NCBI GenBank assembly: GCA_035221665.1
Contig: CM069140.1
Location: 54,870,001 to 54,934,000, forward strand
Reading direction: 5' to 3'
Length of the DNA: 64,000 nt
DNA from: Okamejei kenojei
Lineage: Eukaryota
The notes beneath the pieces were generated by a model that was not told where the DNA came from, searched no databases, and saw nothing but the letters and a program-made list of their open reading frames with translations. The position numbers and the translations under genes were made by a program. This document shows, in pieces, positions 338 through 51,289 of this stretch. The first letter of the stretch is position 1, and each line of letters starts with the position of its first letter.

Positions 338-955
338 TCACTGTTTAAGAAGGAACTGCAGATACAGGAAAATCAAAGGTAGATAAAAGTGCTGGAGAAA
401 CTCAGCGTCTACGGAGCTGACGGAGTTGGGAGTAAGGGAGCCAGAGTTGATGAAGTCAGTGATGATGCTAGAGATAGTGGCCTGGTGCTCGTCTGTGGGG
501 TCATGGTCCAAGGATAAGTAGGAGGAGGTGTCTGAGAGTTGGCGGGTGGCCTCAGCATTGTAGAGATCAGCATGCCAGACTACCACGGCATCTCCCTTGT
601 CGGCGGGTTTGATAACCCAATCTGGGTTGTTGCGGAGTGAGTGGATGGCAGTACTTTCAGGGGGGGAGAGATTAGAGTGAGACAGGGGAGTGGACAAGTT
701 GAGGCGGTTGATGTCCCGCCGGCAGTTTAAAATAAAAAGGTCTAAAACCGGAAGATGGCTATGAGGGGATGTCAAAGAGGAGGGGGTCCGTTGGAGACGG
801 GAAAAGGGATCACCAATGGGGGGCGAGGACTCCTTCCCATGGAAGAACGCTGTGAGGCGGAGGTGACGGGAGAAGAGTTCCAAATCGTGGCGGGCGCGGA
901 ACTCATTGAGGTGGGGACGGAGGGGGACAAAGGTGAGGCCTCTGCTGAGGACAGA
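338..955 (-). mobile_element. Penelope-like element remnant: N-terminal RT region joined to the terminal-repeat (pLTR) 3' end
   Basis: ORF 338..1027(-) contains LSRGLTFVP, NLSPPE and VIKPADKGDAVVVW (Penelope DKG motif). 340-410 matches the GCTGAGTTWCTCCAGCAC...CTGCAGTTCCTTC tail of the mini-elements. Confidence 0.85.
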
Positions 956-1730
956 CTGTAAATCTTCTCTGTACCCTTTCCAACATGACAACAGCAGGGT
1001 TACACTGAAACTAATTAAACCTTTCAACTTATCAAAGCTTACTTATACAGCAGGACTGTATCTGACAGTTGGACTGCAATGGAAAGGGTGTCCAACAACC
1101 CTTGTAATAGAAATATATGGTTTTAATTATTGAAAAGAACTTAAGGTTCTTGTGAAGCCAGAAAAATTTAAAACACTCATACAAGCAAATTAATATTTTT
1201 GATATGAAGTGTACACTAAAGGAAGGTTCGTGCAACATCTTTGAAGCTTTTTAATGAGCCTTTGCATTGTCTAGTATTTGCTTTATCAATGTAGGGTTTT
1301 CCCTGCATTTCCGTAGATAATTGTGAATTGATTGTGTACATATAGTGTACAAAGCACCGTGGTTAGAAGCTGATTGTATATATTAATTATTTGCACAATT
1401 TGTTGACTAGAAGTTTCCTTCTTCATGTATTTTAAAATGTTGCAATAATTTTTTTTTTTAATTAGTTTTGGCCTGGCTACAAATAGCTTTGATCCATATC
1501 TCTATGTTATAAACTAACTTCTCAGAATACAATTATCTAAAATATGTATCTTACAGACAAAGAACAGAAATGAAATACTGCCTGGAAAGTACAGAAATCC
1601 TTACAGTTCTCACAGATAATGCGAGATAATGCAGGCTTGTTCATGAGTAATACAACCTGCTGATAATCTGAGCCATCTGTTTAATGTTTACATTTTTGTT
1701 GTGTCACATGTTCAATCTAGGATTCAGGTT

Positions 1731-2036
1731 AGAAACAGAAACATAGAAAATAGTTGCAGGAGTAGGCCATTCGGCCCATCAAGCCAACGGGTTGATGGCC
1801 GAACGGTTGATGGGCCAACATTCAATATGATCATGGCTGATCATCCAAAATCAGTACCCCGTTCCTGCTTGCTCCCCCATATCCATTGATTCCGTCAGCC
1901 GTTCAAGCTGTATGTATCTCGCTCTTGAAAACATCCAGTGAATTGGCCTCCACTGCCTTTTGTGGAAGAGAATTCCACAGATTCACAACTCTCTGGGTGA
2001 AAAGAGAATTCCACAGATTCACAACTCTCTGGGTGA
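1731..2036 (-). mobile_element. CR1 LINE 3' end fragment with small internal duplications
   Basis: Minus-strand tail (TTTCTATG-like), 3'UTR hairpin GGCCGAATGGCCTACTCC and FTQRVVNLWNSL encoded twice (1967-2036). Confidence 0.85.
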
Positions 2037-4920
2037 GGTGGAGGATAAATGCGTGGCTGAGGGACTGGTGCAGTGGACAGGGATTCAAGTTTCTTGATCA
2101 CTGGGACCTCTTTTGGGGAAGGCATGATCTGTACACAAAGGACGGGTTGCACTTGAACCCGAGGGGGACCAATATCCTGGCAGGGAGATTTGCAAAGGCT
2201 ACTGGGGAGACTTTAAACTAGAAAGGCTGGGGGGAGGGACTCGGGTAGAGGGGGCTAGGGGTCAGGCAAGAGGCAGAGAAGGGAAGCACTCGGACCCAAA
2301 ATGTAGGCGAGAAAGATGAAAAAGATAATAGACAGAGAATAAGGGACGGTGGGTTTCTAAAATGTGTATATTTTAATGCTAGGAGCATTGTAAGTAAGGT
2401 GGATGAACTTAGAGCCTGGATTGGCACCTGGAAATATGATGTTGTGGCAATCAGTGAAACATGGTTGCAGGAGGGCTGTGATTGGAAACTAAATATTCCA
2501 GGATTTCGTTGCTTCAGGTGTGATAGAATTGGAGGGACCAGAGGGGAAGGTGTTGCATTGCTTGTCAGAGAAGATATTACAGCAGTGCTTTGGCAGGATA
2601 GATTAGAGGACTCGTCTAGGGAGGCTATTTGGGTGGAACTGAGAAGTGGGAACGGTGTAGCAACACTTTTAGGGGTGTATTATAGACCGCCAAATGGGGA
2701 GCGAGAATTGGAAGAGCAAATATGTAAGGAGATAGCAGATATTACTAGTAAGCACAAGGTAGTGATTGTGGGAGATTTCAATTTTCCAAAAATAGACTGG
2801 GAAACACATTCTGTAAATGGGCTGGATGGTTTGGAGTTTGTAAAATGTGTGCAGGATAGTTTTTTGCAGCAGAACATAGAGGTATCGACCAGAGAAGGGG
2901 CAGTGCTGGACCTCCTGTTAGGAAATGAGGCAGGTCAGGTGACGGAGGTATGTGTTGGTGAGCACTTCGGAACCAGTGATCACAATACCATTAGTTTCAA
3001 TATAATGTAAAAAGAATCTTAAGAAAGAAATTAGGAAGGCTAAAAGAAGATATGAGGTTGCTTTGGCAAGAAAGGTGAAAGTAAATCCAAAGGGTTTCTA
3101 AAGCTATATTAATAGCAAAAGGATAACGAGGGATAAAATTGGACCATTAGAGAACCAGAATGGACAGCTATCTGCAGAGCCAAAAGAGATGGGGGAGATA
3201 TTGAACAATTTATTTTCTTCGGTATTCACCAAGGAGAAGGATATTGAACTCTGTGAGGTAAGGGAAAAAAGTAGAGTAGCTATGGAAACTATGAGATTCA
3301 AAGAGGAGGAAGTACTGACACTTTTGAAAAATATAAAGGTGGATAAGTCTCCAGGTCCTGACAGGATATTCCCTAGGACATTGAGGGAAGTTAGTGTAGA
3401 AATAGCAGGAGCTATGACAGAAATATTTCAAATGTCATTAGAAACGGGAATAGTGCCGGAGGATTGGCGTACTGCGCATGTTGTTCCATTGTTTAAAAAG
3501 GGTTCAAAGAATAAACCTAGCAATTATAGACCTATTAGTTTGACGTCAGTGGTGGGCAAATTAATGGAAAGGATACTTAGAGATAATATATATAAGCATC
3601 TGGATAAACAGGGTCTGATCAGGAACAGTCAACATGGATTTGTGCCTGGAAGGTCATGTTTGACAAACCTTCTTGAATTTTTTGAAGCGGTAACTAGGGA
3701 TATTGATGAGGGTAAAGCAGTGGATGTTGTCTATATGGATTTCAGTAAGGCCTTTGACAAGGTTCCCCATGGAAGGTTGGTTCAGAAGGTTCAATCTTTG
3801 GGTGTTAATGGCGGAGTAGCAAGATGGATTCAACAGTGGCTGAATGGGAGATGTCAGAGAGTAATGGTGGATGGCTGTTTGTCAGGTTGGAAGCCGGTGA
3901 CCAGTGGGGTGCCTCAGGGATCTGTGTTGGGTCCACTGTTGTTTGTCATGTACATCAATGATCTGGATGATGGGGTGGAAAATTGGATAAGTAAGTATGC
4001 AGATGATACTAAGATAGGTGGTATTGTGTATAATGAAGTATATTCTCAAAGTCTACAGAGAGATTTGGGCCATTTGGAAAAGTGGGCTGAAAGATGGCAG
4101 ATGGAGTTTAATGCTGATAAGTGTGAAGTGCTACATCTTGGCAGGACAAATCAAAATAGGACGTACATGGTAAATGGTAGGGAATTGAGGAATGCTGTGG
4201 AACAGAGGGATCTAGGAATAACTGTGCATAGTTCCCTGAAGGTGGAATCGCATGTAGATAGGGTGGTAAAGAAAGCCTTTGGTGTGCTGGCCTTTATAAA
4301 TCAGAGCATTGAATATAGGAGTAGGGAAGTAATGTTAAAATTGTACAAGGCATTGGTAAGATCAATTCTGGAGTATGGTGTACAATTTTGGTCGCCTTAT
4401 TATAGGAAGGATGTCAACAAAATAGAGAGAGTACAGAGGAGATTTATTAGAATGTTGCCAGGGTTCCAGCAACTATGTTACACAGAAAGGTTGAACAAGT
4501 TAGGTCTTTATTCTTTGAAGCGCAGAAGGTTAAGGGGGGACTTGATTGAGGTCTTTAAAATGATGAAAGGGATAGACAGAGTTGACGTGGATACGTTTTT
4601 CCCATTGAGGGTAGGGAAGATTCAAACAAGAGGGCATGACATGAGAATTAAGGGACAGAGGTTTAGGGGTAACGTGAGGGGGAACCTCTTTACTCAGAGG
4701 GTGGTGGCTGTGTGGAATGAGCTTCCAGCAGAAGTGGTTGAGGCAGGATCGATTTTAACATTTAAAAGTAAAGTGGATAGGTATATGGACGTGAAGGGAA
4801 TGGAGGGGTATGGGCTGAGTGCAGGTAGATGGGACTAGGGGAAAACAAATGGTTGGCACGGACTGGAAGGGCCGAGAGGGCCTGTTTCCGTGCTGTAATT
4901 GTTATATGGTTATATGGTTT
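2037..4920 (+). mobile_element. CR1 LINE copy A, 5'-truncated: end of ORF1 (SGNH esterase), APE endonuclease, internal deletion, RT, 3'UTR and tail
   Basis: ORF1 end DGLHLN (..2221); APE motifs YFNARSI, ISETWL, GDFNF, SDH (2350-3010); RT 3189..4838 with GVPQGSVLGP and YADD; tail GTTATATGGTTATATGGTT at 4901-4919. Confidence 0.95.
3189..4838 (+). CDS. CR1 ORF2 reverse transcriptase domain, uninterrupted 549-aa frame (remnant of a broken ORF2)
   Basis: KSPGPD, YRPISLTS, QHGF, DFSKAFDKV, PQGSVLGP and YADD motifs in one frame. Disconnected from the endonuclease by stops and a deletion near 3008. Confidence 0.85.
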   Translation: MGEILNNLFSSVFTKEKDIELCEVREKSRVAMETMRFKEEEVLTLLKNIKVDKSPGPDRIFPRTLREVSVEIAGAMTEIFQMSLETGIVPEDWRTAHVVPLFKKGSKNKPSNYRPISLTSVVGKLMERILRDNIYKHLDKQGLIRNSQHGFVPGRSCLTNLLEFFEAVTRDIDEGKAVDVVYMDFSKAFDKVPHGRLVQKVQSLGVNGGVARWIQQWLNGRCQRVMVDGCLSGWKPVTSGVPQGSVLGPLLFVMYINDLDDGVENWISKYADDTKIGGIVYNEVYSQSLQRDLGHLEKWAERWQMEFNADKCEVLHLGRTNQNRTYMVNGRELRNAVEQRDLGITVHSSLKVESHVDRVVKKAFGVLAFINQSIEYRSREVMLKLYKALVRSILEYGVQFWSPYYRKDVNKIERVQRRFIRMLPGFQQLCYTERLNKLGLYSLKRRRLRGDLIEVFKMMKGIDRVDVDTFFPLRVGKIQTRGHDMRIKGQRFRGNVRGNLFTQRVVAVWNELPAEVVEAGSILTFKSKVDRYMDVKGMEGYGLSAGRWD

Positions 4921-5234
4921 CTAAACCAGAGTCAATGACATTCTAATCTTCCATCTTTCTCCCTCAAGAGAAGGGGGGTGGAGGAGATAATGGCAGGGAA
5001 TGGTTATGATCGTGAGACTGAAACATTGGCAAATTGCTTCAGTGTGTTGTACAGATGGGGCACAGTATGTTGGAGTTTTGGAGAAGGTAGCTTAAAGGTG
5101 ATTGCTAACAAACATTCTTCTGGGCAATGTCCAACATTTTGAGTGTATGTAAATGCCTTCAATTATCCAATCATGTAGAAGGTTTTTCTTCCCATCATGG
5201 GATGCGGATATGATTAGCAAGATCATAATTTATA

Positions 5235-6267
5235 TTTAGCCAGAAAAAGCAGCCTACCAGAGGACTGGAAGAAATTTAGAGTCCAGCAGAGGAGGACACA
5301 GGGCTTAATTAGGAAAGGGAAAATAGATTATGAAAGAAAACTGGCAGGGAACATAAAAATTGACTGCAAATGTTTCTATAGATATGTGAAGAGAAAGAGA
5401 TTAGTTAAAACAAATGTAGGTCCCTTGCAGTCAGAAACAGGTGAATTGATCACGGAGAACAAGGACATGGCAGACCAATTGAATACCTATTTGGTTCTGT
5501 CTTCACTAAGGAAGACATAAATAATCTGCCGGAAATAGCAGGGGACCAGGGGTCAAATAAGGTGAAGAAACTGAGTGAAATCCAGGTTAGCCGGGAAATG
5601 GTGTTGGGTAAATTGAATGGATTAAAGGCCGATAAATCCCCAGGGCCAGATAGTCTGCATCCCAGAGTACTCAAGGAAGTAGCCACAGAAATAGTGGATG
5701 CATTAGTGATAATTTTTCAAAACTCCTTAGATTCTGGAGTAGTTCCTGAGGATTGGAGGGTAGCTAATGTAACCCCACTTTTTAAAAAAGGACGGAGAGA
5801 GAAAACGGGGAATTACAGACCAGTTAGTCTAACATCGGTAGTGGGGAAACTGCTAGAGTCAGTTATTAAAGATGAAATAGCTGTACATTTGGAAAGTGGT
5901 GAAATCATTGGACAAAGTCAGCATGGATTTACGAAAAGGTAAATCATGTCTGACGAATCTTATATAATTTTTCGAGGATGTAACTAGTAGAGTGGATAAG
6001 GGGGAACCAGTGGATGTGTTATATCTAGACTTTCAGAAGGCTTTCGACAAGGTCCCACATAAGAGATTTGTAAACAAACTTAAAGCACACGGTATTGGGG
6101 GTTCAGCATTGATGTGGATAGAGAACTGGCTGGCAGACAGAAAGCAAAGGGTAGGAGTAAACGGGTCCTTTTCAGAATGGCAGGCAGTGACTAGTGGGGT
6201 ACTGCAAGGCTCAGTGCTGGGACCGCAGCTATTTACAATATATATTAATTATTTGGACGAGGGAATT
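5235..6267 (+). mobile_element. CR1 LINE copy B, 5' part (RT), interrupted by copy C
   Basis: ORFs 5562..5942 and 5992..6285 carry RT motifs up to YINYLDEGI, then the sequence switches abruptly. Confidence 0.9.
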
Positions 6268-9200
6268 AAGACGTTAAAACACTGAGTGGCGGACTGGCTT
6301 GTGAAGCAAAAAGGGCTGTTGAGCCAAAACCAAAGAGGCCAACATCGGGCAACGCCATTGTAGTTGGAGACTCCATTGTGAGAGGTACAGACAGGGGTTT
6401 CTGCGGCAACAGACAGGATTCGAGGATGGTGTGCTGCCTTCCTGGTGCCAGGATCCAGGATGTCACGGACAGAGTGCAGAAAATCCTCAAGGGCGAAGGT
6501 GAACAGCCGGAAGTGGTAGTGCATGTCAGCACAAACGATGTCGGAAAGAAGGGGATGAATATTCTGCAGCGTGACTTTAGAAAGCTCGGAAAAATGCTGA
6601 AAAGCAGGACCTCCAGGGTTGTTATCGCTGGTTTGCTTCCAGTTCCTCATGCTGGCGAGAGCAGGAACAGGGAGATACGGGACCTGAATGTGTGGCTGAG
6701 GAACTGATGCAGGGGGCAGGGATTTAGATTCTTAGATCACTGGGATCTGTTTTGGAGTAAGGGGGAACTGTACAAAAGGGACAGATTGCATCTTCTGGTG
6801 GGGGACCAGTTTTCTGGCAGGCAGGTTTGCCACTGCTACACGGGTGGTTTTAAACTGAATAAGGGGGGTGGGGTATCAAATGGGATAGTCGACGATGGAG
6901 TTAAAGGAAAGAGAGTAAAGGGATGGTTAATGACCCCAGAATTAACGGGAAAGGAAGCTCACAAAGGGATAGGAGAGTATGGCCAAGTGTAATAGTGATC
7001 GATGTGAAAGGTGAGATGCGTAAGGAATTAAAAGTATTGTATATAAATGCGCGAAGTATAAGAAGTAAAGTAGATGAGCTTGAGGCTCAGTTAGCGGTTG
7101 GTAGATATGACATTGTGGGGATTACTGAGACGTGGCTGCAGGAGGATCAGGCCTGGGAACTTAATATTCAGGGTTATACATCCTATAGAAAGGACAGGCA
7201 GGTGGGCAGAGGAGGAGGGGTAGCTCTGCTGATGAGGGATGGAATTCAGTCCCTTACGAGGGAAGACATACAGACTGATGAGGTAGAGTCACTGTGGATT
7301 GAGTTGAGGAATTGTAAAGGCAAGAAGACACTAATTGGTGTTATTTACAGATCCCCAAATAGTAGCCCGGATGTAGGGTGTAAGTTGCAACAGGAGGCAA
7401 CTGGCATGTAACAAAGGTAATGCTACTGTGGTGATGGGGGATTTCAATATGCAGGTAGACTGGGAAAATCAGGTTGGTTCAGGACCCCAAGAAAGAGAGT
7501 TTGTAGAATGCCTCTGAGATGATTCTTAGAGCAGCTTGTAATGGAGCTGACCAGAGAAAAGGCAATTCTGGATTTAGTGTTGTCCAATGAACCAGATATG
7601 ATAAGAGAACTCGAGGTAAAGGAACCGCTTCGAGGTAGTGATCATAATATGATTAGTTTTAATCTGCAATTTGAGAAGGAGAACGTTAAATTGGAAGTGG
7701 CAGTGATGCAGTTGAACAAAGGGGACTATGAAGGCATGAGAGGGGAGCTGGCCAAAGTAGACTGGAAAGGGATCCTAGCAGGAATGACGGTGGAACAGCA
7801 ATGGCAGGAATTTCTGGGCATAATCTGGAAGACGGTGGATCATTTCATTCCAAAAAGGAAGAAAGATTCTAAGGGGAGTAGGAGGCAACCGTGGCTGACA
7901 GGAGAAGTTAGGGATAGAATAAAACTAAAAGAAAAGATGTATAACACAGCAAAGAGTAGCCGGAAGCCAGAGGATTGGGAAACTTTCATAGGACAACAGA
8001 AGGAAACAAAAGTGCAATATGAGCTGAAAAGATGAAGTATCGGGGGCAACTGGTCAGGAATTTAAAGAAGGACAGTAAAAGCTTCTTTAGATATGTTAAG
8101 GAAAAAAAAGTAGCAAAGTCAAATGTGGGTCCCTTGATGGCAGACACGGGTGAAATTATTATGGGCAACAAGGAAATGGCAGAAGAGTTGAAAAGGTACT
8201 TTGGATCTGTCTTCACTAAGGAGGACACAAACAATCTCCCAGATGTACTGGGGGACAGAAGATCTAAGGGGGTAGAGGAACTGAAAGAAATTGTAATTAG
8301 GCGAGAAATAGTATTGGGTAGGCTAATGGGACTGAAGGATGATAAATCCCCTGCGCCTGATGGTCTGCATCCCAGGGTCCTCAGGGAGGTGGCTCTAGAA
8401 ATAGTGGACGCATTGGTGATCATTTTCCAATGTTCAATAGATTCAGGATCAGTTCCTGTGGATTGGAGGATAGCTAATGTTATCCCACTTTTCAAGAAAG
8501 GAACGAGAGAGAAAACGGGGAATTACAGACCAGTTAGCCTGACTTCGGTGGTGGGAAAGATGCTGGAGTCAATTATTAAAGAGGTAACAACGCAGCATTT
8601 GGATAGCAGTAAAAGGATTAGTCCAAGTCAACATGGATTTATGAAAGGGAAGTCATGCTTGACTAATCTTCTGGAATTTTTTGAGGATGTGACAAGTAAA
8701 ATGGATGAAGGGGAGCCACTGGATGTAGTGTATCTAGTCTTTTAGAAAGCCTTTGATAAGGTCCCGCACGGGAGACTGGTGACTAAAATTAGAGCACATG
8801 GTATTGGGGGTAGGGTGTTGACATGGATAGAAAATTAGTTGGCAGACTGGAAGCAAAGAGTAGGAGTGAACGGGTCCTTTTCAGAATGGCAGGCAGTGGC
8901 AAGTGGAGTGCCGCAAGGCTCGGTGTTGGGGCCGCAACTGTTTACCATATATATTAATGATTTGGAAGAGGGAATTAGGAGCAACACTAGCAAGTTTGCA
9001 GATGACACAAAGCTGGGTGGCAGTGTGAACTGTGAAGAGGATGTTAGGAGGTTGCAGGGGGACTTGGACAGGTTGAGTGAGTGGGCAGATGCGTGGCAGA
9101 TGCAGTATAATATAGATAAATGTGAGGTTATCCACTTTGGTGGCAAAAACAAGGGGGCAGATTATTATCTCAATGGGGTTAGGTTAGGTAAAGGGGAGGT

Positions 9201-9932
9201 ACAGCGAGACCTGGGTGTCCTTGTACACCAGTCACTGAAAGTTGGCGTGCAGGTACAGCAGGCAGTGAAGAAAGCTAATGGAATGTTGGCCTTCATAACA
9301 AGAAGATTTCAGTACAGGAGTAAAGAGGTTCTTCTGCAGTTGTATAGGGCTCTGGTGAGACCACATCTGGAGTATTGTGTACAGTTTTGGTCTCCTAATT
9401 TGAGGAAGGACATCCTTGTGATTGAGGCAGTGCAGCGTAGGTTCAGGAGATTGATCCCTGGGATCGCGGGACTGTCATATGAGGAAAGATTGAAAAGACT
9501 AGGCTTGTATTCACTGGAGTTTAGAAGGATGAGGGGGAATCTTATAGAAATATATAAAATTATAAAAGGACTGGACAAGCTAGATGCAGGAAAAATGTTC
9601 CCAATGTTGGGTGAGTCCAGAACCAGGGGCCACAGCCTTAGAAAAAAGGGGAGGTCATTTAAGACTGAGCTGAGAAAAAAACGTTTTTACCCAGAGAGTT
9701 GTGAGTTCATGGAATTCCCTGCCACAGAGGGAAGTGGAGGCCAAATCACTGGATGGATTTAAGAGAGGGTTGGATAGACCTCTAGGGGCTAGTGGAGTCA
9801 AGGGATATGTGGAGAAGGCAGGCACGGGTTATTGATAGCGGACGATCAGCCATGATCACAATGAATGGCGGTGCTGGCTCAAAGGGCCGAATGGCCTCCT
9901 CCTGCACCTATTTTCTATGTTTCTATGTTTCT
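6268..9932 (+). mobile_element. CR1 LINE copy C (ORF1 esterase, APE, RT; stops and frameshifts) nested in copy B
   Basis: ORF1 AIVVGDSIVR...PGARIQDV; APE YINARSI, ITETWL, SDH; RT FADD in 8839..9762; tail (TTTCTATG)n to 9932; AATT duplicated at 6264-6267 and 9933-9936. Confidence 0.95.
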
Positions 9933-10887
9933 AATTGATTGCAACATCTCCAAGTTTGCAGATGACACTAAGCTGGGGGGTAGTGTTAGGTATGAGGAGG
10001 ATGCTAGGAGGCTGCAAGGTGACATGGATAGGATGGGTGAGTGGGCAATTGCATGGCAGATGCAGTATAATGTGGATAAATGTGAGGTTATCCATTTTGA
10101 TGGCAAAAACAGGAGGGTAGACCATTCAGATAATGGTGGCAGATTAGGAAAAGGGGAGAGAGATGCAACGAGGCCTGGGTGTCATGGTACACCAATCATT
10201 GAAAGTAGGCATGCAGGTGCAACAGGCAGTGAAGAAAGCAAATGGTATGTTAGCATTCATAGCGAATGGATTTGAGTATAGGAGCAAGGAGGTTTTACTG
10301 CAGTTGTACAGGGTTTTGGTGAGACCACACCTGGAGTATTGTGTACAGTTTTGGTCTCCTGATCTGAGGAAAGACATTCTTGCCATAGAGGGAGTACAGA
10401 GAAGGTTCACCAGACTGATTCCTGGGATGTCAGGATTTTCATATGAGGAAAGACTGGATAGACTTGGCTTGTACTCGCTAGAATTTAGAAGACTGAGGGG
10501 GGATTTTATAGAAACTTACAAAATTCTTAAGGGGTTGGATAGGCTAGATGCAGGAAGATTGTTGGGGAAGTCCAGAACAAGAGGTCACAGTCTTAGGATA
10601 AGGGGGAATTCCTTTACGACCGAGATGAGGAAAATATGTTTCACACAGAGAGTGGTGAGTCTCTGGAATTCTCTGCCACAGAAGATAGTTGAGGCCAGTT
10701 CCTTGGCTATATTTAAGAGGGAGTTAGATGTGGCCCTTGTGGCTAAAGGGATCGGGGGTATGGAGAGGAGGCAGGTACAGGATACTGAGTTGGATGATCA
10801 GCCATGATCATATTGAACGGCGGTGCAGGCTCGAAGGGCCGAATGGCCTACTCCTGCACCTATTTTCTATGTTTTTTATGTTTCTAT
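9933..10887 (+). mobile_element. CR1 LINE copy B, 3' part
   Basis: Resumes with IDCNISKFADDTKLGG, continuing the YINYLDEGI broken at 6267. ORF 10163..10807 is the RT C-terminus; tail at 10861-10887. Confidence 0.9.
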
Positions 10888-11559
10888 AATTTATGTTGCT
10901 GGTCCCTAAACTCCTTTGGGAAAGTTGAGGTAAACTGCTTTTCAGATTCCCTACAGCCAAGTAGCTCCTGTGGGGTTGGTGGAGAGGCAGTCCAAGGAAG
11001 AAGCCTCACCGATAAGGTAGGACGAGAGAGATATTTCAAAGTTGGTTGGCGTGTAACTTTATAGAATCTTTGAATCGTGTAGCACAGAAATCAACCCTTT
11101 TGACCCACCTCGTCCCTGCCGACTTTGATGCCAATCCACACTAATCCTGTTTCCTACATTATGCCTATTTCTCTTTAAGCCTTTTCTATCTAAGAAACTT
11201 TTCAAAAGCCTTTTAATAATTGTAAGGAGCTTGTAACTCAGAGAAATGTTATAACTTGGAGAGGGATTTGCAGATCGTGATGGTGCCTTATCCTCCCAAA
11301 TGGCACATGTCACACAATTCAGTAATGCTGCTGAAAATGTCTTGGTGTCTTGGTGAGTTTCTACAGTGCACTTTGCAAATTGTGCACATTGTCTTTAGGC
11401 TGGTGAAGATAGTAAATGTTTAAGGTGGCATTTGAAGTGCTAATCAAGCAATTGCTTCATTCCGAATAGCATTTGGCTTTTCAAAATTAGTTGAAGCAGT
11501 GTTCATCTAGGCAAGTAGAAAATATTCCATCACCCCCAACACCGATGCCTTGTAGATGT

Positions 11560-12206
11560 TGGAAGGAGTCAGGGAATTCCGGTTTGTTTATGTGGGGGGA
11601 GGGGTGGGGGGTCGGGGGAAACTTTTTATTCAGTTTCTTACCTTGCCGGAGATGCGATTATTTTCCGGATCGCATTCTCTGGTCGCTCTGCAGCCAACCA
11701 TCGATGGAGCTGGAGGCCTCCATGGACTGACCTTGAGCCCCACCGCGGGCGTGGACTTAACATCGGAGCCGATCCCTTGCCTGGGATCGCTCCAACTATT
11801 GCCTGCGGACTTTAACATCGCAAGCTCGCAGTCTTGGGAGAGGCTAATCGGGAGCTCCAATTTCGCGGAAGGTTCGACCGGCCCCGACCCGGGGATCCAA
11901 TCACTGGCGCGGGGAAGCTAACATCCCCCCAATGCAGGAGTTGATCGACCCGATACGAAGGGCCCAAACGTCGCCGGCTACTGGAGTCAAGATCGTCCCG
12001 TGTACGGAGGGCTCGACGCCTGACTGTGGGAGAGCTAAAGAAGAGATTTGAATTTCCATCACTGTGAAGAATGTGGACGAATCACTGTGGTGGATGTTTA
12101 TGTTAAAATGTGTTTTGTTGCTTTTTATTGTATGACTGACTTGGCAAATGAAATTCCTCATATGTTGCAAAACATACTTGGCTAATAACGTATTATTGTG
12201 ACTGTG
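11560..12206 (+). mobile_element. GC/CpG-rich non-coding element, probably a non-autonomous retroelement
   Basis: CpG-rich body followed by an AT-rich tail ending AAATTCCTC...GGCTAATAACGTATTATTGTGACTGTGA, similar to the Rex/Babar-type 3' ends here. No credible ORF. Confidence 0.5.
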
Positions 12207-12221
12207 AAATAAAGAGCTGAA

Positions 12222-12443
12222 GATAGACATAAAAAGCTGGAGTAACTCAGCGGGACAGGCAGCATCTCTGGAGAGAAGGAATGGGTGGTGTTTCAGCTCG
12301 ACACCCTTCTTTAGACTGAAGAAAGGTCTCAACCCGAAAAGTAACCCATTCCTTCTCTCCAGAGATGCTGCCTATCCTTTTGAGTTACTCCAGCTTTTTG
12401 TGTCTGTCTTCAGTTTAAACCAGCATATGCAGTTCCTTCCTAC
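12222..12443 (+). mobile_element. Palindromic Penelope-derived mini-element with hammerhead-like core
   Basis: About 95-bp inverted arms centred near 12315; exact 15-bp TSD AAATAAAGAGCTGAA at 12207-12221 and 12444-12458; CTGAAGA-AAGGTCTCAACCC-GAAA at about 12316-12339. Confidence 0.85.
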
Positions 12444-12974
12444 AAATAAAGAGCTGAATGGCATTCAGCAGAACGCCCAGCATCTGACCTGCCAATGCAG
12501 CCGGTACATTGATGGTGGAAAATGTCTATGTTCTCTTTTGTTGAATATGAGCATTGTCTGATAGTTGTGCATAATAAATGTAACTTGCCACTTATCAGCT
12601 CAAGCCAGAATGTGCTGACAGTCTTGCTGATTGTAGATAATGACTGTTTTGTTATCAGAACAAGTTTTACTTGGAAATTAATTTTGTGCAATCACCAGTA
12701 AAGGCCTGATGTCATCAATGTGGTTGTAGATAGACCTAAGACACCATGTTGTGGTACAGCCGTATCAATACATTGGTAATAAGGCTCAGAATTAATATTT
12801 AGCATTGGGGTCAGTCCTGAGGCACATGTCAAATGATCTTTAAATGAGCTAGAGGAATTGTGGCTGTGTTCTAACTTAATGATTAGACTAAAACAACAGT
12901 CTATCCACATACCCACTGAGTTTCTCCAGCATTTTTTGTCTACCCACATTTATTGTTGCTCTATTTTAACATAT

Positions 12975-20710: not shown

Positions 20711-22261
20711 CATTACATTGCCCTTTAACAGTGAACCCAATGAATCCCATTGCATGGATCGACAGACTGTGGGCTTTCTAATAGGAAGGAAAGACCTCTT
20801 CAGATCATTAGTTGTACCAAAATGATGATTCCAATTTCAGTTCTGCCATAAACATTCAACAGTGAAATATTTGACCTTCTAGATCTAACTACATTTCAGT
20901 TGCTTGATTGTTGGAACCGAATGATATCAATTCACGATCAAACATTTCCTGTCTGTGATAACAAAAAGCTACTGATAAATATCCATAACCATAATTTCTA
21001 TGTTTGTGAGTAGCAAACATAACAGATTGATAAGATTACTGTATTAAATAAGTTTGGCCTGTTTATTTTAAATGAATAATTGCCTTCAATGAAATAGAGG
21101 GCAAACTAAGATTCACCTTTTAGTATTTCTATCCCATACAATGCCCAAATCTGCTTTCTGAGTTTCCTAAATGTAAAGGTAGGAGAATGTAACATGGTGT
21201 GACTGATCTCAATGGTCTGTAGCTCACATAGGAAAGTCATTACAATATTGAGCCAGCAATACTCTATTGATATCACATTTTTACCTTAATTTCCCCAAAT
21301 GTGTTTTTTTTAAAGACTTATTCAGTTTTATAGAACCAGGTTAAGAAATCAACCCCTTAATAAAGTGTAGAGTAACACAATAGTTATGTTACTGCACGAG
21401 TAATCTTTCAGTGATGATTCCATTATAATTTAAATGTCATTTTGGCAACCAGGTGTTCAAATTCAATTAATGAAATAAATCTATTATAAAAAGCTGGTAT
21501 CGATAAGGGTGACTATGAAATCATCATATCAGTAAAATAACAATTAAACAGTTTGGAATGAAACTTCCTTGGTACGCGTCACAACAACAGATTCCCAGAC
21601 TTGCACCAAATAGTTTAGCAAAATCACCAATTTGAAGGGTAGAATGAGCTAATGTTTGGTAACTCAAATTTCACTGTACCTTAACTGGTACATGTGACAA
21701 TAAACTGACCTTGAAACCTTGAAACATCTTGTGAGTGAATAAAACAAAATAGTAAGATTAAACGAGAACTTACCAGTTTGAAGTTTGATCTTGATTTTGT
21801 GAGGAGTTACGTTGGTGATTACGTGAAGAAGACCCGTCAGGCCGCATGCGCGTCAATCTTCAAAGCAGCGGTATGAAATCACAAATAACAACACCGAAGT
21901 GACATAGTAAGATGCGTGACTCGAGAACTGCCAGATGATCCTTTATGAGAGAGGGTTGGGCGTGGCGGGCACGTAATCACCAACGTAACTACTCATAAAA
22001 TCAAGATCAAACTTCAAACTGGTAAGTTCTCGTTTAACCTTACTATTTTACTTCGGAATCACGTGAGTGATTCTGTGAAGAGTTCAAAGCTTTGTGATTT
22101 CATGCCGCAGATTACAAATCCCGGCATCCCACTGCATTGATTGACTTGAATGAGAAATTAATGCATTAGTAGTAACATTGCATTTAATGCAGTAATAAGG
22201 TTTATTTAAAAATATAAACAAACAACAGTACCCCTCTATCCCAGGGCACTTTAAACAGAAC

Positions 22262-23188
22262 TTAAACAGAACTTAAAATAGCATTGGCAAACAGCCCTGG
22301 ATCGGCAATCGGCCGATGATAGAAATTCTGAGACATCAGCTCATTTGCCCATCCGGCGGCCGCCAAAATGTGGTCGACGGGGATGTCCCTCGCCTTGGCC
22401 GCCGATGTAGCTGCTGCTCTGGTGGAATGAGATGTGAACACATCAGTGTTAATACCTGCATCAATCAAGACTTGTTTCAGCCATCTCGAAATAGTATTAA
22501 CTGACACTCTCTTATGTGTGTTTTTTTATAACTGATAAACAATCCTGTCTCCATGTTACATAAACCCTCTGTAGCTGCAATGTATTGCATCAAATGTGTT
22601 TTTACGCATAAGGATGGATCCGTGGGATATGCTGAAAACACTATTTAAAACCCTGTGACACCTGGCCTGCTTTGTTTGAGGAGGTCGTAAATGTAAAACG
22701 TAACATTGTCTGCAGCAGTTTCCATTCTATCTAGCTGTGATTTTTGTAACGTCTGAACTCTTTGTGCTGAAACCAATGCCATAAGCATGGCCACCTTCAT
22801 GGTGATTTTGGTCAAAAACAAAGACGAGACAGGAACCCACTCACGCACTAAGGACCATACTCACATCCCAAATTGCCATTTATCTAGGTTTGGGAGGTCT
22901 GGAATTAAAAATCCCTTTCATTAACCGAACAACGAGAGGGTGAGATCCAATAGAATGTTTGTCTGACTTCATCACTAAATACGATGATAAAACACTTCTC
23001 GCTGTATAGATTGCACTATAACTTAGTCCTTCATCATAGTAGAGGGTTGACAGAAACTCTAGAACATGCGAAATACGTGCTGTACAATAGTCAATATTAT
23101 TTTGTACACAGTAAGCTTCCCATTTTTTTACATAACAAATATACTGCTTTTGAGTACTCGATCTCCAAGATGCAGTAAGCATGTCCAC
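22262..23188 (-). pseudogene. DIRS tyrosine recombinase, frameshifted
   Basis: N-terminal WRSSTQKQY...LEFLSTLYYDEGLSYSAIYTARSVLS; box I SAQRVQTL; box II HSTRAAATS...AAGW...FY, split over three ORFs. Confidence 0.9.
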
Positions 23189-23276
23189 AGTTCAACTCGA
23201 CAATCCATGCCCCAGATATGGCCTTCTTAAAATCTGCAAATTAACAAATCAATACGGTCATACAACGGATGGCCAC

Positions 23277-24739: not shown

Positions 24740-24893
24740 CGGAAAGGAGAAGGGCTCTTCTTTCAGTCTGAAGAAAGGTCTCGACCTGAAACATCACTCA
24801 TCCTTTTTCTTCAGAGATGCTGCCTGTCCCTCTGAGTTACACCGGCACTTTGTGTCCATCTTCAGTATATACGAGCATCTGCAGTTCCTCTTT
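24740..24893 (+). mobile_element. Penelope-derived mini-element (single arm) with hammerhead-like core
   Basis: Imperfect TSD ACACAATTATAGAAGCA (24723-24739) and ACACAATATAAAAGCA (24894-24909); same body as 12222..12443. Confidence 0.8.
24765..24798 (+). ncRNA. Putative minimal type I hammerhead ribozyme motif (likely decayed)
   Basis: AGT-CTGAAGA-A-AGGTC(TC)GACCT-GAAA-CA-TC-ACT: CUGANGA, stem II, GAAA, UC cleavage-site position and a 3-bp stem I. Confidence 0.55.
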
Positions 24894-26119
24894 ACACAAT
24901 ATAAAAGCATCAAACCTCAACGATGCATCACTGGAAAGTAGGGTCACTACAGAAATAAAGGCCAGTAACGTAAAACATCCTCAACATGTCAGATAACAGC
25001 CATGGAGGCAGAAATACAGTTAAAGTTTCCGATTAGGAATAAAACAAGCCTTAAAACACTGAGGCTATGGCGGAAAGAATGCAAGGTCTGTGATAGTGTG
25101 GAAGGCAGCAGAAAGTAGAGGCAACATCAAATTTGGCATCTAAACATGAGGGAACACATCATCCACTTATGATGCTCATCTCTACATATTTTGTTCCATT
25201 GAAGTTAGGTTCATGTTCACCTTGCCGAGGTGTTATTATAAAAAACTGAAATTTTTAAAAAAAAAGTTATAATTATATAAAAATAATTATAATGCAAGGA
25301 CAAAATTATGTTTTTCACAGTAATTTTTCCCAATCTGCTTGGTACTTCATTGACTGAAAAATATCCTACAAATAGCTTAGTTATTCAAATATATCCAAAG
25401 TAAGATCTTATTTTTAGATGATTATAAGCTATATCTACCACAGGTAGAAAATCATTGGATTGCTTAACTCTACCATTGCAAAATCCCACATCTATAACAT
25501 CACACATAAATAAACCTCATATTTATAGCTTTGAGATGATTGTCACACAAGCTACCTTGTAAATGCCAAAACACCCCACATTATATCAAAACCACAATTC
25601 AACACATTCTTTCTCTGTAATTATTCTTCAGTGAATTATGGCTTTGCATTCCTGCTTAAGAAGACTGATAACCATTGCAGTTAATTTCAGAAAACTATCA
25701 AAAATCTCCACCCTTGTAGCTCTGAGTGAATCTCTAGTGCACACTAAATGTTTTACAATGCTCATTTAGCTGAACAATTGTCTGTCACTCTAGAAAATAA
25801 CTATTACAATATCATCTATGTTCCCTGAAAATGAAAGGATTATCAAGGGAGTACAGATAAACAGGAGGAACTGTAAAAGCAGAGCTAGAGTAATTAAGTT
25901 ATGACATCTGGCCATTGAAATTGGTTTCTACATGGAAACCCTGGTTTAGAAATTTGATAAGGCTGGCAAATGTGTACATGGTCACAATTGATAGTGTTTG
26001 ATGCTCAAGCGGACATTTATGCACATCTTATACAATGATTAAAGTAGTTATAAAGCATTAATCATACTATACACATGATACACAAGAAGATAAAATAAAT
26101 AGTTCCAGGAGTTCTTAAC

Positions 26120-27714: not shown

Positions 27715-29982
27715 AATGATGGGACTGTTCTGCAATTCATTGTGATGCTTCTCATCACTCTACCATCATTTACGCAGCCTTTAACTCACATCAGCCCTGC
27801 CAGTGCACCCTTACTCATCAGATGACTTATATGTAGAATAACTAGCATCACATTTTCCAAAAGGTACTTCCTTCTTCCTCAATCATCAATAAGTTAAACA
27901 TCACATGTTTAAAATTAAATATTAGTACCAATGGCAGAACAGTGGTGAGTCAAGCTGCCATCTTCCATATACTGAATACCAGAAGAGTCAAACATTGCCT
28001 AATATTTTTTTTAAGAGACATCTGGACAAACGTTTGAATCAGCAAGACTACAGTCAAAATACATATTAATGGGACTAGTACAATTTTCAGCAAGGACAAG
28101 GTGGGCCATAGAGCCTGTTATTATACCGTATGACTATATTCCATGACTCTATACTAATTATGCAGGTCGAACAATGCATTGCATTTTAAATTGTTGTTCT
28201 GAAATTATTTTGCTCAGCTTTGATAAATTTAGTCAATTTACAAATAGCACAGTTGGCTTCCAAGCATCAGTTTCGAATAAAACTATTATTTTTTCTTCTC
28301 ACAGAAAAAAAAAACCTTCCATAGTGTGAGCCTGCTTTATGTATTTAAATGACTCCATGCTTTGCACTGTCTAGATCTGATGAAAATTTGTGCAACAAGT
28401 GCAGGAAGAATAGCAAATCCAATCCAAAAACAAATCAATTATTTCCACCGATCAGAAAGGTGAAGTGTTGCACCCCAAGGATGGGGTTGTGCAAAAATAG
28501 ATGGCAATGTCTCACTGTTATCATCACAACTCAACTTCTTTCTTCATTCTGGCAACTCTAACTCAGAATGTAATTGGTTCTTGGTTAGGTCAAAGGGAAG
28601 GTTAATAATGATGATGAATTATCTCATTATTTAAGCTACATACTATGTTGCAATATAGGTTTTAATAATTCATAAAAAATGCAATGACGTGAAGTCCTTT
28701 AATGCAATAAGATATGCACTTACTCTTTTTCCTACTTTTGATTTGATTTACCAAACTTTAAATGAATATAGATTACAATAATCCTTCAATTTCTCCTATA
28801 AACGACAAATAGAACATATTTAACTTTCGGTTGAAATACCAGAAGGTGTGATAGGTCATAGAATTCATCTCCATAAAAGGAATAACCTTTTTCTTTCTTT
28901 CATAAGGCTGTACCTACACATTTTCATAAAACGCAATGACCACAAAGATATTTTCCGCAATGAAAAATATTGTCACTTATTCCATAAATGCTGAGAAAGA
29001 CATGTGGGTTTGTAGGTTAATTGGCTTCTGTTAGTTGTCTGTAGTGTAGGATAAAACCAGTGTGCTGGTGATCATTGGTTGGCGTGATCTTGGTGGGCCA
29101 AAGGTCCTCTTTCCACGTATATCTAAAAAAAGACTCAGCGGGTCAATCAGGGCTTGTGGAGGGAATAAGCAGATGACATTTCGGGTTGGGAACATTTTTC
29201 TATTGGCATATTGTTTTTTTGCCGAAAATTCTGGAAAATTCCAGGACCGCATTCATTACTTATGTCTCATCAACTGAGTATACCTGACTGATCTCTAACT
29301 TCAATTGAAAATGATAGTCCATTACTAATGAATACACCAGGATAATCATCATTTATAAAAGCTGCTTGATATTAGTTTATGAATTAACTGACAGCTGAAT
29401 AATGCCTAAGGGAGGTAAGGAATTATTGTCCCACAGACTATTTCCTCAGTTTAATCCAAATTGCTTACAACTTGCAAAAATAACCTGTCTTGAACTGATA
29501 TGAAGCAATAAACAAGGGTAAGAAAAACCATGGTGCGCTTTAATGTTAATCTACTTTGACATTCATCTTGAAGGGCAATTTCATGGATGCATTTAAGAGT
29601 GTTTTCAAGGACAATGTGCTCTAGATAAATTCACTGATGTTAGTACCAGAAGTGAAAATTTTGAAGTAGATTTGAAAATTAGATCAAATGATATGATGAC
29701 AGACAAATATTTTGAAACATCATTATGTCAGTCAATATCCATTCAATCCTACCATTAACATGATGCCACACATTTTATTTTTACATCCCCTTTCTGTATT
29801 TTGCAGTGAACACACCCTCACAACACCCTGATCCACACCACAGTCATTGCCAAATCTCCTCCCATGCCTTCCATTGTATTGTCCCAAATTCTAGACTTAT
29901 TTATTTTACCTCCTCTCTTCCCATTATCACGAGCCTTGGACACTCCATTTAGATCTACATACATTTTTTTTCATGCATTTCC

Positions 29983-30527
29983 AGTCTGAACTAAGGTCGC
30001 GACCCGAAACTGGGGTTTAGAAGAATGAGGGAGGTCCTAATTGAAACGTACAGAATAGTGAAAGGCTTGGATAGAGTGGATGTGGGGAGGGAGGGTGTTT
30101 CCACTGGTGGGAGAGTCTAGGACTAGAGGTCATAGCCTCAGAATTAAAGGACGTTCTTTTATGAAGGAGATGAGGAATATAGTCAGAGGGTGGTGAATTT
30201 GTGGAATTCTTTGCCACGGAGGCTGTGGAGGCCAAGTCAATGCATATTTTTTAAAGCAGAGATAGATAGATTCTTGATTAGTACAGGTGTTAGAGATTAT
30301 GGGGAGAAAGCAGGAGAATGGGGTCAGGAGGGAGAGATAGATCAGCTATGATTGAATGGCAGACTAGACTTGATGGGCTGAATTGTCTAATTCTGTTCCT
30401 ATCACTTATGATCTTATGAAACATCATCTATCCATGTTCTACAGAGAGGCTGCCTGATCCGTCGAGTTACTTCAGCACTTTGTGTTCATTTGTGTATTAA
30501 CCAGTGTCTGCAGTTCTTTGTTTCTAC
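29983..30527 (+). mobile_element. Penelope-derived mini-element split by a CR1 3' fragment (30011-30417)
   Basis: GTCTGAACTAAGGTCGCGACCCGAAAC | CR1 | GAAACATCATCTATCC...CTGCAGTTC; GAAAC is duplicated at both junctions. Confidence 0.75.
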
Positions 30528-30889
30528 ATTTTGCTTTATCTATGCACATCTTACAGTGAAGTCCCTTCTTTATTTTTGTGGGGATCCAAGGTCAGTTTTG
30601 TAATCCATTTTCTGAACATGTCTATTAAGTTAGTAAATGTAAACCCTGAAGATTTCCTCACTTACCATCTCAGTGCTTAGCCATAACCCTAATCCCACCT
30701 CTCTATCCTTAATATACTCACTGTGCTGGGGTGTTGCCTGAGGACCACAAAGCTACATGTTTTATATTCTTGTTCAATGCAGTAATATCATACCAGATTG
30801 TTGAACCACACTTAAAGGAGAATGTTCTAGAAACATTGATTAGGGGGGGGGGGGTGACACTGCCTTACATTTGGAAAAAATATGAATTG

Positions 30890-32643: not shown

Positions 32644-34226
32644 TTGCCAAACCTACATCAGCAGAGAATACACCTTGAGTATTTTTAATAGCTGCAGCTA
32701 GTTAAAACCCAACCAGTTACGATTCTAGGTTTAGTTCTTGCAATTCCTAAACCATCCTGAATTCCAACCTGAATTGCCTTTTTAATTGCCTCATGGCACA
32801 TTCTGCTTATTGGGAACTTGTAAAATATAAAACTTGTAATTATACAGCAAAAGCAGACTATTAGAGAAACTCAGCGTGTCAGGTAGAAGTTTCAAATTAA
32901 GATCTTTCTTTATACTGTATCTGTATCTACTTTGCCTAGTCCAGTAGGATCAGATTAGCTGATCCTTTTTTTGTGGGACAATTCAATGGAATTGCAGCAA
33001 AGTGAAGAGATTGACTATAATGGGGATGATTTGTTGGGGAACTGTGCTGGTGAACAGACCACAGAATTTGTTATTGTAGCAGTGAGCTTAAACGGTGAAT
33101 GGAAGCTAACCATGCTGTATTTCACAGCTGATCTATTTCTGCTTTCATCCGATGCTCATTTAGAAAATCCAGCTCTAGTTTTCCTAAGTTAAAAATGGGA
33201 CATGTATGTTCATAAATCATAGAAGCAAAATTAGGCCGTTCGGCCCCTCCCATCTACGCCATTCAATCATGGCTGATCTTTCCCTCTCAACCCCATTCTC
33301 CTGCCTTCTCCCCACAACCTTTGTCAGCTGTGTGACTTCTGATCATTATCGTGTCTGAATGTGTGTGAACTCCTGGCGAGGATTGGAATTGGACAGACCA
33401 TAAAAGTCTATTATGTCTAAATGATTATCTTGTCAATAACTGTCTGTATTAAAGACTGCTGCACCCAAGAAATGGAACCCCACAATACATTTGTATAACA
33501 GAAAGTGAATGTGGGGTGGGGGGAATAAAATGTTGACCTTTGTTTTGTTTGCCTCTGCAAGCAATTTTACCAGCTTATTAAGACAATTTACAGTTTAAAA
33601 AAAATGTGATCCTTATTCTCACCTGAAAAATCTGCATGATAAATATTTTTACGTACCTTTATGTCATAGTTTTCTACTTTAGAAAGGCTATACGAGCACA
33701 TATGACTGGTCTCATGTTCCTGTATCTGGCATCTATAACTGTCTACAAGAAAAGTGTCTACAAATCAAAGATGTGTAAAGAGAATGTCAATTTTAACTGT
33801 TAACATGACCTCAATTGGAATGCTATTGGACAAGTTATTGGACCAGTTTTGTGAATATGTTCTCTATCTGAAGGCAGTAATAAATTCTCTCACTGTTAGT
33901 CATCATTTGCTGCCATCACAAACTGTACCTTATCAGTCTGCCCAGTCACATACATGGATAATGAAAATAACCAGTTACTGATTTTATAAGAGAGCAAGAA
34001 AAGTCATGCAGTTTGTGTGAAACCAATATTAACCAATTATTTTCAATGTAAGTAAGTAAGTAAGTAAGTTTATTGGCCAAGTATTCACATACAAGGAATT
34101 TGCCTTGGTGCTATCGGTATCAATATAATTTTTTTTAATGGTTTAGGAGGAAAAACAAAATATCTTTGGAATTTCAATGGCAAAATCTCATATAACCATT
34201 GGGAAACTTATTTGTGAAATACAAAA

Positions 34227-37199: not shown

Positions 37200-37640
37200 T
37201 AACATAGAAACAAAGAAAATATGTGCAGGAGTAGGCCATTCGGCCCTTCAAGCCTGCACCACCATTCAATATGATCATGGCTAAACTCAGTATCCCGTAC
37301 CTGCCTCTCTCCATACCCCCTGATCCCCTTAGCCACAAGGGCCATATCTAACTCCCTCTTAAATATAGCCAATGAACTGGCCTCAACTACCGACTGTGGC
37401 AGAAAATTCCAGAGTTTCACCACTCTCTGTGTGAAAAATGTTTTTCTCATCTCGGTCCTAAAAGACTTCCTCCTTATCCTTAAACTGTGACCCCTTGTTC
37501 TGGACTTCCCCAACATCGGGAACAATCTTCCTGCATCTATTCCTGTCCAACCCCTTAAGAATTTTGTAAGTTTCTACAAGATCCCCCCTCAATCTTCTAA
37601 ATTCTAGCGAGTACAAGCCGAGTCTATCCAGTCTTTCATT
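37200..37640 (-). mobile_element. CR1 3' fragment (copy B subfamily)
   Basis: ERLDRLGLYSLEFRRLRGDL...FTQRVVKLWN. Confidence 0.9.
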
Positions 37641-41973: not shown

Positions 41974-42131
41974 ACAGAAATAAAGGGCTGCAGATGCTGG
42001 TTTACAATCGAAGACTCAAAGTACTGGAGTAACTCAATGGGTCAGGCAGCATCTCTGGAGACCACAGATAGTTGACATTAGTTCAGGTTGGGACTCTAAA
42101 GAGGGATCTTGACCTCAAACATGACCTATGC
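41974..42131 (-). mobile_element. Degraded Penelope-derived mini-element with a short inverted arm
   Basis: CTGCAGATGCTGG...GGAGTAACTCA...GGCAGCATCTCTGGAG; flanking duplication AGGTAAATTATG (41962-41973) and AGGTAATTATG (42132-42142). Confidence 0.65.
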
Positions 42132-46859: not shown

Positions 46860-47055
46860 GATAGGCACAAAGTGCTGGAGTAAATCAGCAGCGCCAACAA
46901 CAACCCTGAATGGTTGATGTTTTGGGTCGAGAATAAGGCTCTCAACCCAATACATCACCAATGCCTTCTCTCCAGAGATGCCCTGTCCCGCTGAGTTACT
47001 CCAGCACTTTGTGTCTATCTTCAGTTTAACCCAGCATCTGCTGTTCCTTCCTACA
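46860..47055 (+). mobile_element. Palindromic Penelope-derived mini-element in a CR1 3'UTR
   Basis: Inverted arms; TSD CATGATTTTAATGAA just before the element and CATGATCTTAATGAA at 47056-47070. Confidence 0.8.
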
Positions 47056-50980: not shown

Positions 50981-51289
50981 CTTCTTTCTAGTTCTTAAGT
51001 TCTTATCAATGTCCCAATTGCCTAACTGCACCAATGTATGATTTGACATGACCTCCATACTTTCACAGCAGAATTGTGTGCACATTTTTCCTGAACTGAA
51101 GTAAATTTAAACAAAACAGTTTTGGTTAAATTGGAACAAATATAGGCTCCAGGCCATTTTTTTCAGAGTGATGTTAGCCTTGCAAATGGGAGGGTGATGG
51201 TTTGGAAAGAACGTGTTGGGGGAGCAACTGGATAGAGTGGAGACCAGGAATGTTTATGCAGTGAAAATCAGATTTGTGAAAGGAATAGT

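Follow-up and report, generated by a model that had tools for sequence, protein, structure and literature searches.

The window, by which we mean the whole 64,000-nt stretch of Okamejei kenojei DNA analysed here, is repeat-rich animal DNA. At positions 12207-12458 it holds a fold-back palindrome, the focal copy, whose two head-to-head arms (12217-12314 and 12316-12413) are 84% complementary and have a folding energy of -140 kcal/mol (z -17). The earlier note had described this copy as one unit of a repeat family, with a hammerhead ribozyme motif and a target-site duplication (TSD). These three elements are present, but the fold-back structure had been overlooked. The TSD is exact, as had been claimed, with AAATAAAGAGCTGAA at both 12207-12221 and 12444-12458 (15/15). 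The parts of the copy are listed below, with the arms named after the pseudo-LTR (pLTR) of a Penelope-like element (PLE), their almost certain source.

12207-12221 (+): left TSD, 15 bp; its last 5 nt (CTGAA) also serve as the outer end of the inverted arm
12217-12314 (-): inverted pLTR arm, 98 nt, no tail, decayed hammerhead core (self-alignment, HMM)
12313-12317 (no strand): fold-back centre AG-A-CT, with a 1-nt loop at 12315
12316-12346 (+): minimal type I hammerhead motif, mutated; 12324, 12340 and 12343 deviate from the family majority (architecture as in the accessible text of PMC4209133)
12316-12413 (+): direct pLTR arm, 98 nt (self-alignment, HMM)
12414-12444 (+): PLE "tail", 31 nt, on one arm only, with a sharp family-wide end at 12444
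12444-12458 (+): right TSD, exact, a direct match to the left TSD

A scrap of arm lies nearby at 12911-12946 (+; arm HMM). A different high-copy repeat (12054-12207), which we take to resemble the 3' end of a LINE, ends right at the left TSD, and pieces similar to it, 39 nt each, occur at 51403-51441 and 34061-34097.

Copies in the window and abundance of the family

The family was searched for with a profile HMM built from eight arms of the window, which therefore match by construction, at a cut-off of E ≤ 1. The search returned 20 matches, as against 2, 1, 1, 0 and 1 in five shuffled windows, where the best E was 0.005. With the match at 32862-32886 (E 0.69) dropped as chance-level, the remaining 19 represent 13 insertions covering 1,619 bp, or 2.5% of the window. 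The six main units and five scraps named earlier were all recovered, the eight model arms among them by construction, and the 3' end motif quoted for the family has six matches at up to three mismatches (0.08 expected), one of which, at 63810, is without any arm-HMM match. Eleven of the 13 insertions carry no ORF remnant and two are joined to PLE coding remnants; five consist of opposite-strand arm pairs. Several visibly different subfamilies are represented among the stubs. Besides the focal copy and those joined to coding remnants, the copies are:

56197-56414 (+): second long fold-back, arms 91% complementary, direct arm without about 9 nt at the centre, degenerate 14-bp TSD
46849-47055 (+): fold-back with an internally deleted inverted arm, TSD 14/15
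24745-24896 (+): direct arm, tail and short inverted stub, centre AG-T-CT, TSD of about 16 bp
41974-42131 (-): member of a different subfamily, inverted arm of 37 nt, TSD of about 12 bp
29983-30528 (+): single-arm copy beginning CAGT-CTGA, interrupted by an insert of about 400 nt at 30011-30416
54595-54696 (-): old fold-back with its centre inside the arm and no hammerhead remaining (self-alignment, HMM)
42702-42812 (+): single arm with tail, old and diverged; search for a TSD negative
29133-29200 (-): arm scrap with a decayed core (HMM)
55533-55587 (-): arm scrap (HMM)

The unit previously placed at 29983 is real, but only a 28-nt core lies there and the rest resumes at 30417, past an insert of another repeat, a LINE piece (30011-30416) that splits the copy.

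With element ends set by eye, TSD-like repeats beat 95% of 4,964 random pairs in six of the eight copies tested, which supports the flanking duplications of 12-17 bp reported earlier. The identities are 15/15 at 12222, 14/15 at 46860, 15/17 at 24740, 11/12 at 41974 and 11/14 at 56201, and the split copy (29983 with 30417) also passes; at 42735 and 54600, the other two of the eight, no such repeat was found. The length of the inverted arm varies across copies (about 98, 96, 93 with a deletion, 37, about 12 and 0 nt). The one-sided tail layout of the focal copy is repeated at 46860 and 56201. In all three of these long fold-backs the direct arm ends at the end of the tail and the inverted arm at its inner boundary. 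The last three letters of each TSD are GAA, in agreement with the arm end, and TSD and arm overlap by 5, 4 and 3 nt (GAA background 2.1%).

Our family-level evidence consists of the window and of contigs from four public runs aligned to 11900-12800 at 80% likeness. Three of the runs are DNA, and the fourth (X15), taken as an RNA candidate, is flagged as probably DNA as well. Between 208 and 229 thousand contigs per DNA run align on this 901-nt stretch, their depth concentrated on the element and partly on two neighbouring repeats, and neither the number of contigs nor their summed depth is a copy number. If the density of 13 insertions per 64 kb is typical, the genome would hold some 10^5 copies. 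The abundance of the family is very high.

An exact-pattern scan for the 28-nt core found 0 loci in metagenome contigs and 0 in viral contigs. A 21-nt arm pattern gave two metagenome, three prokaryote-genome and no viral loci, all attributed to chance: four of the five align over 19-29 nt and the fifth (L002) has no blastn match. Among contigs of the runs examined, no empty site was seen at the focal locus. In organisms B and C, and in a second sample of the same organism, contigs link the unique right flank to 23-28 nt of tail; this is under our 31-nt bridging rule and gives a weak hint that the insertion is shared. Judged by titles and abstract openings, no description of this repeat family in cartilaginous fish was found in the literature; a repeat this abundant is probably already held in automated repeat libraries.

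Other repeats share the window. Stacked LINE remnants with endonuclease- and RT-like frames, presumably CR1-like, occupy 1800-10900, 30011-30416, 37200-37640 and 59290-59745, and those of the first 10 kb account for its strong GC skew. A separate MITE-like family is present at 21746-22049 and 50662-50992, with terminal inverted repeats of 80-90 nt whose complementarity is 96% and 89%; likeness between these copies is 78.5% over 312 nt, and a scrap lies at 47114-47152. An ORF remnant at 22880-23191 (-) has a weak Phage_int_SAM_4 match (E 0.004, below the cut-off) and possibly derives from a DIRS-type tyrosine-recombinase retroelement. By eye, frames at 40386-41399 resemble a decayed Tc1/mariner transposase. 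A run of 188 N at 49.5-49.8 kb marks an assembly gap.

Penelope-like origin and the hammerhead motif

Two copies of the repeat are joined to coding sequence:

346-407 (-): 3' portion of the arm with tail, directly joined to the RT remnant (3' motif, HMM)
380-967 (-): PLE ORF remnant lying N-terminal of the RT core, with 60% identity to an RT protein from bamboo shark (E 4e-65 to P0001)
51321-51402 (-): arm with hammerhead, still in its original position at a PLE 3' end (HMM)
51403-51776 (-): pyrimidine-rich 3' UTR of the GIY-YIG-bearing PLE; 39 nt of foreign sequence are inserted immediately ahead of the hammerhead
51777-52064 (-): broken C-terminus of a GIY-YIG endonuclease with two stops (E 5e-7 to P0005)

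Because one copy adjoins an RT remnant and the other a GIY-YIG remnant, the repeat unit is almost certainly, to judge from these sequences, the 3' pLTR end of a PLE. The evidence comes from two separate remnants, no whole element lying within the window, and it agrees with the earlier proposal that the family is Penelope reduced to its ribozyme-bearing terminal repeat. The best named relatives of the PLE fragment are from Chiloscyllium and Mobula (59-65% identity), which points to a cartilaginous-fish host, and full-length relatives show both RVT_1 and GIY-YIG matches. A Pfam search with five window fragments gave no RT or GIY-YIG match, so that the remnants on their own are without an informative one. 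The 39-nt foreign insert (51403-51441) is flanked by CAATC on both sides.

Features of endonuclease-bearing (EN+) PLEs are present: arm or tail beside RT and GIY-YIG remnants, a 31-nt tail at one end, where such elements have one of 30-40 bp, an inverted truncated copy, a palindromic junction and a TSD. A CX2-5CxxC linker, a trait of Neptune and Nematis PLEs according to the accessible text of PMC8557442, occurs in the full-length relatives P0003, P0005 and P0010, takes a variant form in P0008 and P0012, and is absent from P0013. In the window this part of the protein does not survive, and the closest shark proteins stop short of the linker. On this basis we infer that the window PLE may belong to the Neptune/Nematis clade.

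The unit comprises a hammerhead core, a 98-nt arm and a 31-nt tail, about 130 bases in all. The hammerhead core quoted earlier is the family majority in contigs but is not intact in any window copy (0 of 9 arms). CUGANGA is kept in four of the nine arms examined, GAAACGUH in one and both in none; the exact CTGANGA..GAAACGT pattern has no match in the window, and the quoted 28-nt core has only two, at 2-3 mismatches. In the focal copy the core is mutated to GAAAAGTA. Across the three DNA runs, by contrast with the focal copy, position 12340 is C in 67-70% of the depth, 12343 is C in 95-98% and 12324 is G in 64-86%. The resulting majority fits the minimal PLE hammerhead: CUGANGA, an extra base, helix II with G10.1-C11.1, GAAA, a palindromic 15.2-16.2 and UH. 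Such hammerheads are described, in the accessible text of PMC4209133, as mostly single motifs from truncated PLEs, with no more than weak activity as dimers.

A check against Rfam, which the earlier note had suggested, gave no hammerhead match at E ≤ 1 in the window, whose copies are decayed versions of a minimal motif. Two chance-level Rfam matches were discarded; that of MIR831 (E 0.087) on the 46860 hairpin is far under the gathering score. Helix II has predicted pairing probabilities of 0.00-0.03 in fold-backs and 0.03-0.10 in single arms, so prediction favours the ribozyme fold in neither. Covariation in the helices of six arms (82.5% of cells paired, one double change) was equalled or exceeded in 392 of 500 shuffles. 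The hammerhead is predicted to be inactive in the window copies, buried by the hairpin, and it is probably a passenger in these stubs. Cleavage is predicted after 12343, at the end of GAAACGUC, and the DNA unit begins about 31 nt upstream of this site. It follows that the template RNA was uncleaved and that the unit could form at most 2 bp of helix I.

Boundaries, centre and formation of the fold-backs

The tail ends sharply at 12444, where 1,096-1,471 contigs per DNA run diverge into unrelated AT-rich sequence. The preferred 5' boundary lies at AG(T/A)CT, just before CUGAAGA. Since the arm HMM cannot extend past its trimmed boundary, this 5' boundary rests on direct inspection and on loose ends of contigs, and both show a preferred position, not the random 5' truncation that the earlier note had held up as a counter-explanation. 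Run X5 contributes 1,073 contigs whose loose ends fall before 12316 and whose consensus closes with AATCAGT. The PLE 3' UTR lies upstream of only one of the nine copies inspected. Loose ends at 12219/12220 were not counted for the boundary of the inverted arm, because there the consensus continues as the reverse tail.

The same AG(A/T)CT motif is the turning point in four of five fold-backs and in the 24740 stub, across different subfamilies, and the 29983 copy starts there. Among the 32 contig pieces listed, eight, from all four runs, span the centre with at least 31 nt on each side and carry 19-27 differences, so that other loci must share it. An undeleted centre remains in two copies only, with A at 12222 and T at 24740. 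When the two best fold-backs are compared over 86 columns, none holds a shared arm-specific state and none a copy-specific one; with 18 of the 20 variable columns being singletons, the comparison has little power. Joints from 12273/12274 to 12444 on opposite strands, and from 12441-12444 back to 12219-12236, are each backed by between a few and about 25 contigs in any one run; these tail-to-partial-arm joints represent stubs in partial tandem, an arrangement known from PLEs.

The units are likely short reverse transcripts of the PLE's uncleaved RNA, made by its own RT/GIY-YIG protein. For how they form we favour a scheme of double priming, short cDNAs and joining at the centre, which as a whole we hold to be fairly probable. 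The RNA would start within the pLTR at an initiator-like TCAGTCT, which we take to fit the 7-nt initiator consensus YYANWYY. The endonuclease would nick both strands of AT-rich DNA about 15 nt apart. One 3'-OH would prime at the end of the tail and the other 31 nt further upstream, aided by a 3-5-nt GAA/UUC match, and both cDNAs would reach the same RNA 5' end after 100-130 nt. They could then join through the near-palindromic AG-A-CT, leaving A or T at the centre; the A of 12222 and the T of 24740 would fit either resolution of the central mismatch. Priming on one side only would yield a single arm. With a pLTR at both the front and the back of the transcript, priming in the front copy would yield stubs, which would then greatly outnumber ORF-bearing copies. 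These steps are drawn from three to six old copies in one window.

Published work, in its accessible text, describes several of the ingredients. Rotifer PLEs show an inverted pLTR with a palindrome at the junction, a 31-bp tail confined to one of the arms, and TSDs of 8-10 bp (PMC3846280); in vitro, the protein of an Anolis PLE cleaves both DNA strands and extends them, begins reverse transcription at two positions that flank the tail, and works from uncleaved RNA (PMC11167929); and Drosophila Penelope has a start site and promoter inside its pLTR (PMC2377424). Against the microhomology step, the Anolis study reports no homology between the DNA that is cut and the site where reverse transcription starts (PMC11167929).

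A possible but rather improbable alternative to double priming on the parent RNA is that the stubs are a non-autonomous family in the manner of SINEs or MITEs, ORF-less units transcribed from a pLTR-internal promoter and re-copied in trans by the PLE protein. Fixed boundaries, several subfamilies and the 11 of 13 insertions that lack an ORF remnant speak for it, as do the 208-229 thousand contigs that align in each DNA run and the concentration of their depth on the element. In Drosophila Penelope the promoter is located downstream of the transcription start (PMC2377424), so a 130-nt stub could keep it, and pLTRs suffice in trans in rotifers (PMC3846280), as far as the accessible text of both reports goes. 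The variable inverted-arm length fits 5' truncation, and would equally fit that of a palindromic master RNA. Against it stand the stub subfamily motif ACCTATCCATGT, which also occurs on the ORF-derived copy at 51400, and the 98-bp RNA duplex (-140 kcal/mol), an unlikely template. The lack of inherited left/right asymmetry (0 of 86 columns) counts weakly against it as well, although a perfectly palindromic master would give the same result.

Snap-back self-priming, in which the tail-primed cDNA folds on TCA-GAC-TGA and copies itself, or primes on an antisense template, seems unlikely to us. It would account for the self-complementary motif at the centre and for both arms of a copy belonging to the same subfamily, and self-priming is the published reading of palindromic junctions (PMC3846280, accessible text). 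However, it predicts a T centre on the tail strand, where 12222 has A, and an inverted arm with nothing extra, while the inverted arms at 56201 and 41974 hold 9-10 nt absent from the direct arm; later deletions at the tip could explain these extra nucleotides. A non-LTR retrozyme, whose hammerhead cuts RNA into unit-length monomers or circles that are then reverse-transcribed, is very improbable, and the earlier label "retrozyme-like" fits poorly. No tandem array of the unit appears among the 17 TRF rows of the window, the cut site lies 31 nt inside the unit, and in a fold-back the ribozyme is predicted to be masked. Helix I could reach no more than 2 bp at the boundary, and fewer in A-centred fold-backs; the helix II probabilities and the lack of covariation above shuffles given above also count against it. 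In its favour, the hammerhead motif is conserved in the family majority, and in run X5, among the listed joints, 40 contigs run from the tail end into the left arm, so that some adjacent copies exist. Large TSDs are noted for retrozymes (PMC7229834), which derive from PLE pLTRs and in one chondrichthyan are tandem, with a mean length of 363 bp (bioRxiv 10.64898/2026.07.22.740005), according to the accessible parts of these sources. That the element is a DNA-transposon MITE, with inverted repeats serving as transposase binding sites, is scarcely conceivable: short, palindromic and numerous it is, but it has an asymmetric tail, a variable 12-17-bp TSD, inverted arms of variable length and single-arm copies, and it is directly continuous with PLE RT and GIY-YIG remnants.

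Double priming could be taken further, in a reading that we offer as speculative and would not bet on. The dominant product of retrotransposition would be a fixed-length ORF-less stub in hundreds of thousands of copies, and the fold-backs would record double target-primed reverse transcription on separate RNA templates, from two starts flanking the tail, with the cDNAs annealing at the 5' end of the transcript; some stubs would be their own masters. If true, this would be a PLE-driven equivalent of a SINE or MITE that also strews the genome with double-stranded RNA hairpins of about 100 bp.

Comparison with known systems

The repeats fit the published insertion signature of PLEs and are not a new class of element. 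As annotation they are ordinary, PLE terminal-repeat debris, and their value is as test material: abundance and a fixed centre allow a computational choice between double priming, snap-back and a palindromic master, which would count centre letters, arm phylogenies and junction microhomologies. In L1 twin priming, the second target strand primes internally by microhomology and leaves a 5' inversion inside the TSD. The inverted piece there represents upstream, non-overlapping RNA, whereas here both arms copy the same segment, so that two templates or two passes are needed.

The closest parallels, on the accessible text of PMC3846280 and PMC8557442, are Pen2 and Pen2a of Adineta, which share the head-to-head inverted pLTR, the junction palindrome, the 31-bp tail on one arm, a TSD around the insert and solo pLTRs; self-priming on an antisense template was proposed for the inverted pLTR in 2013 (PMC3846280). 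In contrast to Pen2/Pen2a, the usual insert here consists of the pLTR alone and has arms that enclose no ORF, and its junction is found repeatedly at a single site immediately ahead of the hammerhead core. TSDs are longer, about 12-17 bp against 8-10 bp, and the family is far more abundant.

The motif agrees with the minimal metazoan PLE hammerheads of Cervera and de la Pena 2014 (PMC4209133) in the extra base before helix II, G10.1-C11.1 and the palindromic 15.2-16.2. The accessible text of that study, in which cartilaginous fish do not appear by name, places such hammerheads in the fish elements Xena, Poseidon and Neptune and reports opposite-strand pairs, though about 100-700 bp apart, whereas the pairs here abut.

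With PAc, the Poseidon of Anolis carolinensis (Frangieh et al. 2024, PMC11167929), the family would share cutting and extension of both strands, AT-rich targets and uncleaved RNA. RT starts flank the tail about 110-120 nt past helix II in PAc, and lie at about 90 and 121 nt here. PAc differs in clade (Poseidon, against a putative Neptune here) and in its ORF, which begins in helix II, and fold-back stubs are not the subject of that report in its accessible text.

Non-LTR retrozymes resemble the stubs in being non-coding and pLTR-related, with a type I hammerhead, large TSDs and dispersed monomers (PMC7229834; bioRxiv 10.64898/2026.07.22.740005; accessible text). They are, however, head-to-tail tandems with a hammerhead in each unit, and those of PMC7229834 have canonical hammerheads and circular RNA, whereas here the arms are inverted, the motif is minimal and the boundary lies off the cut site. 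The structure of the stubs speaks against ribozyme cleavage as what delimits the integrated unit.
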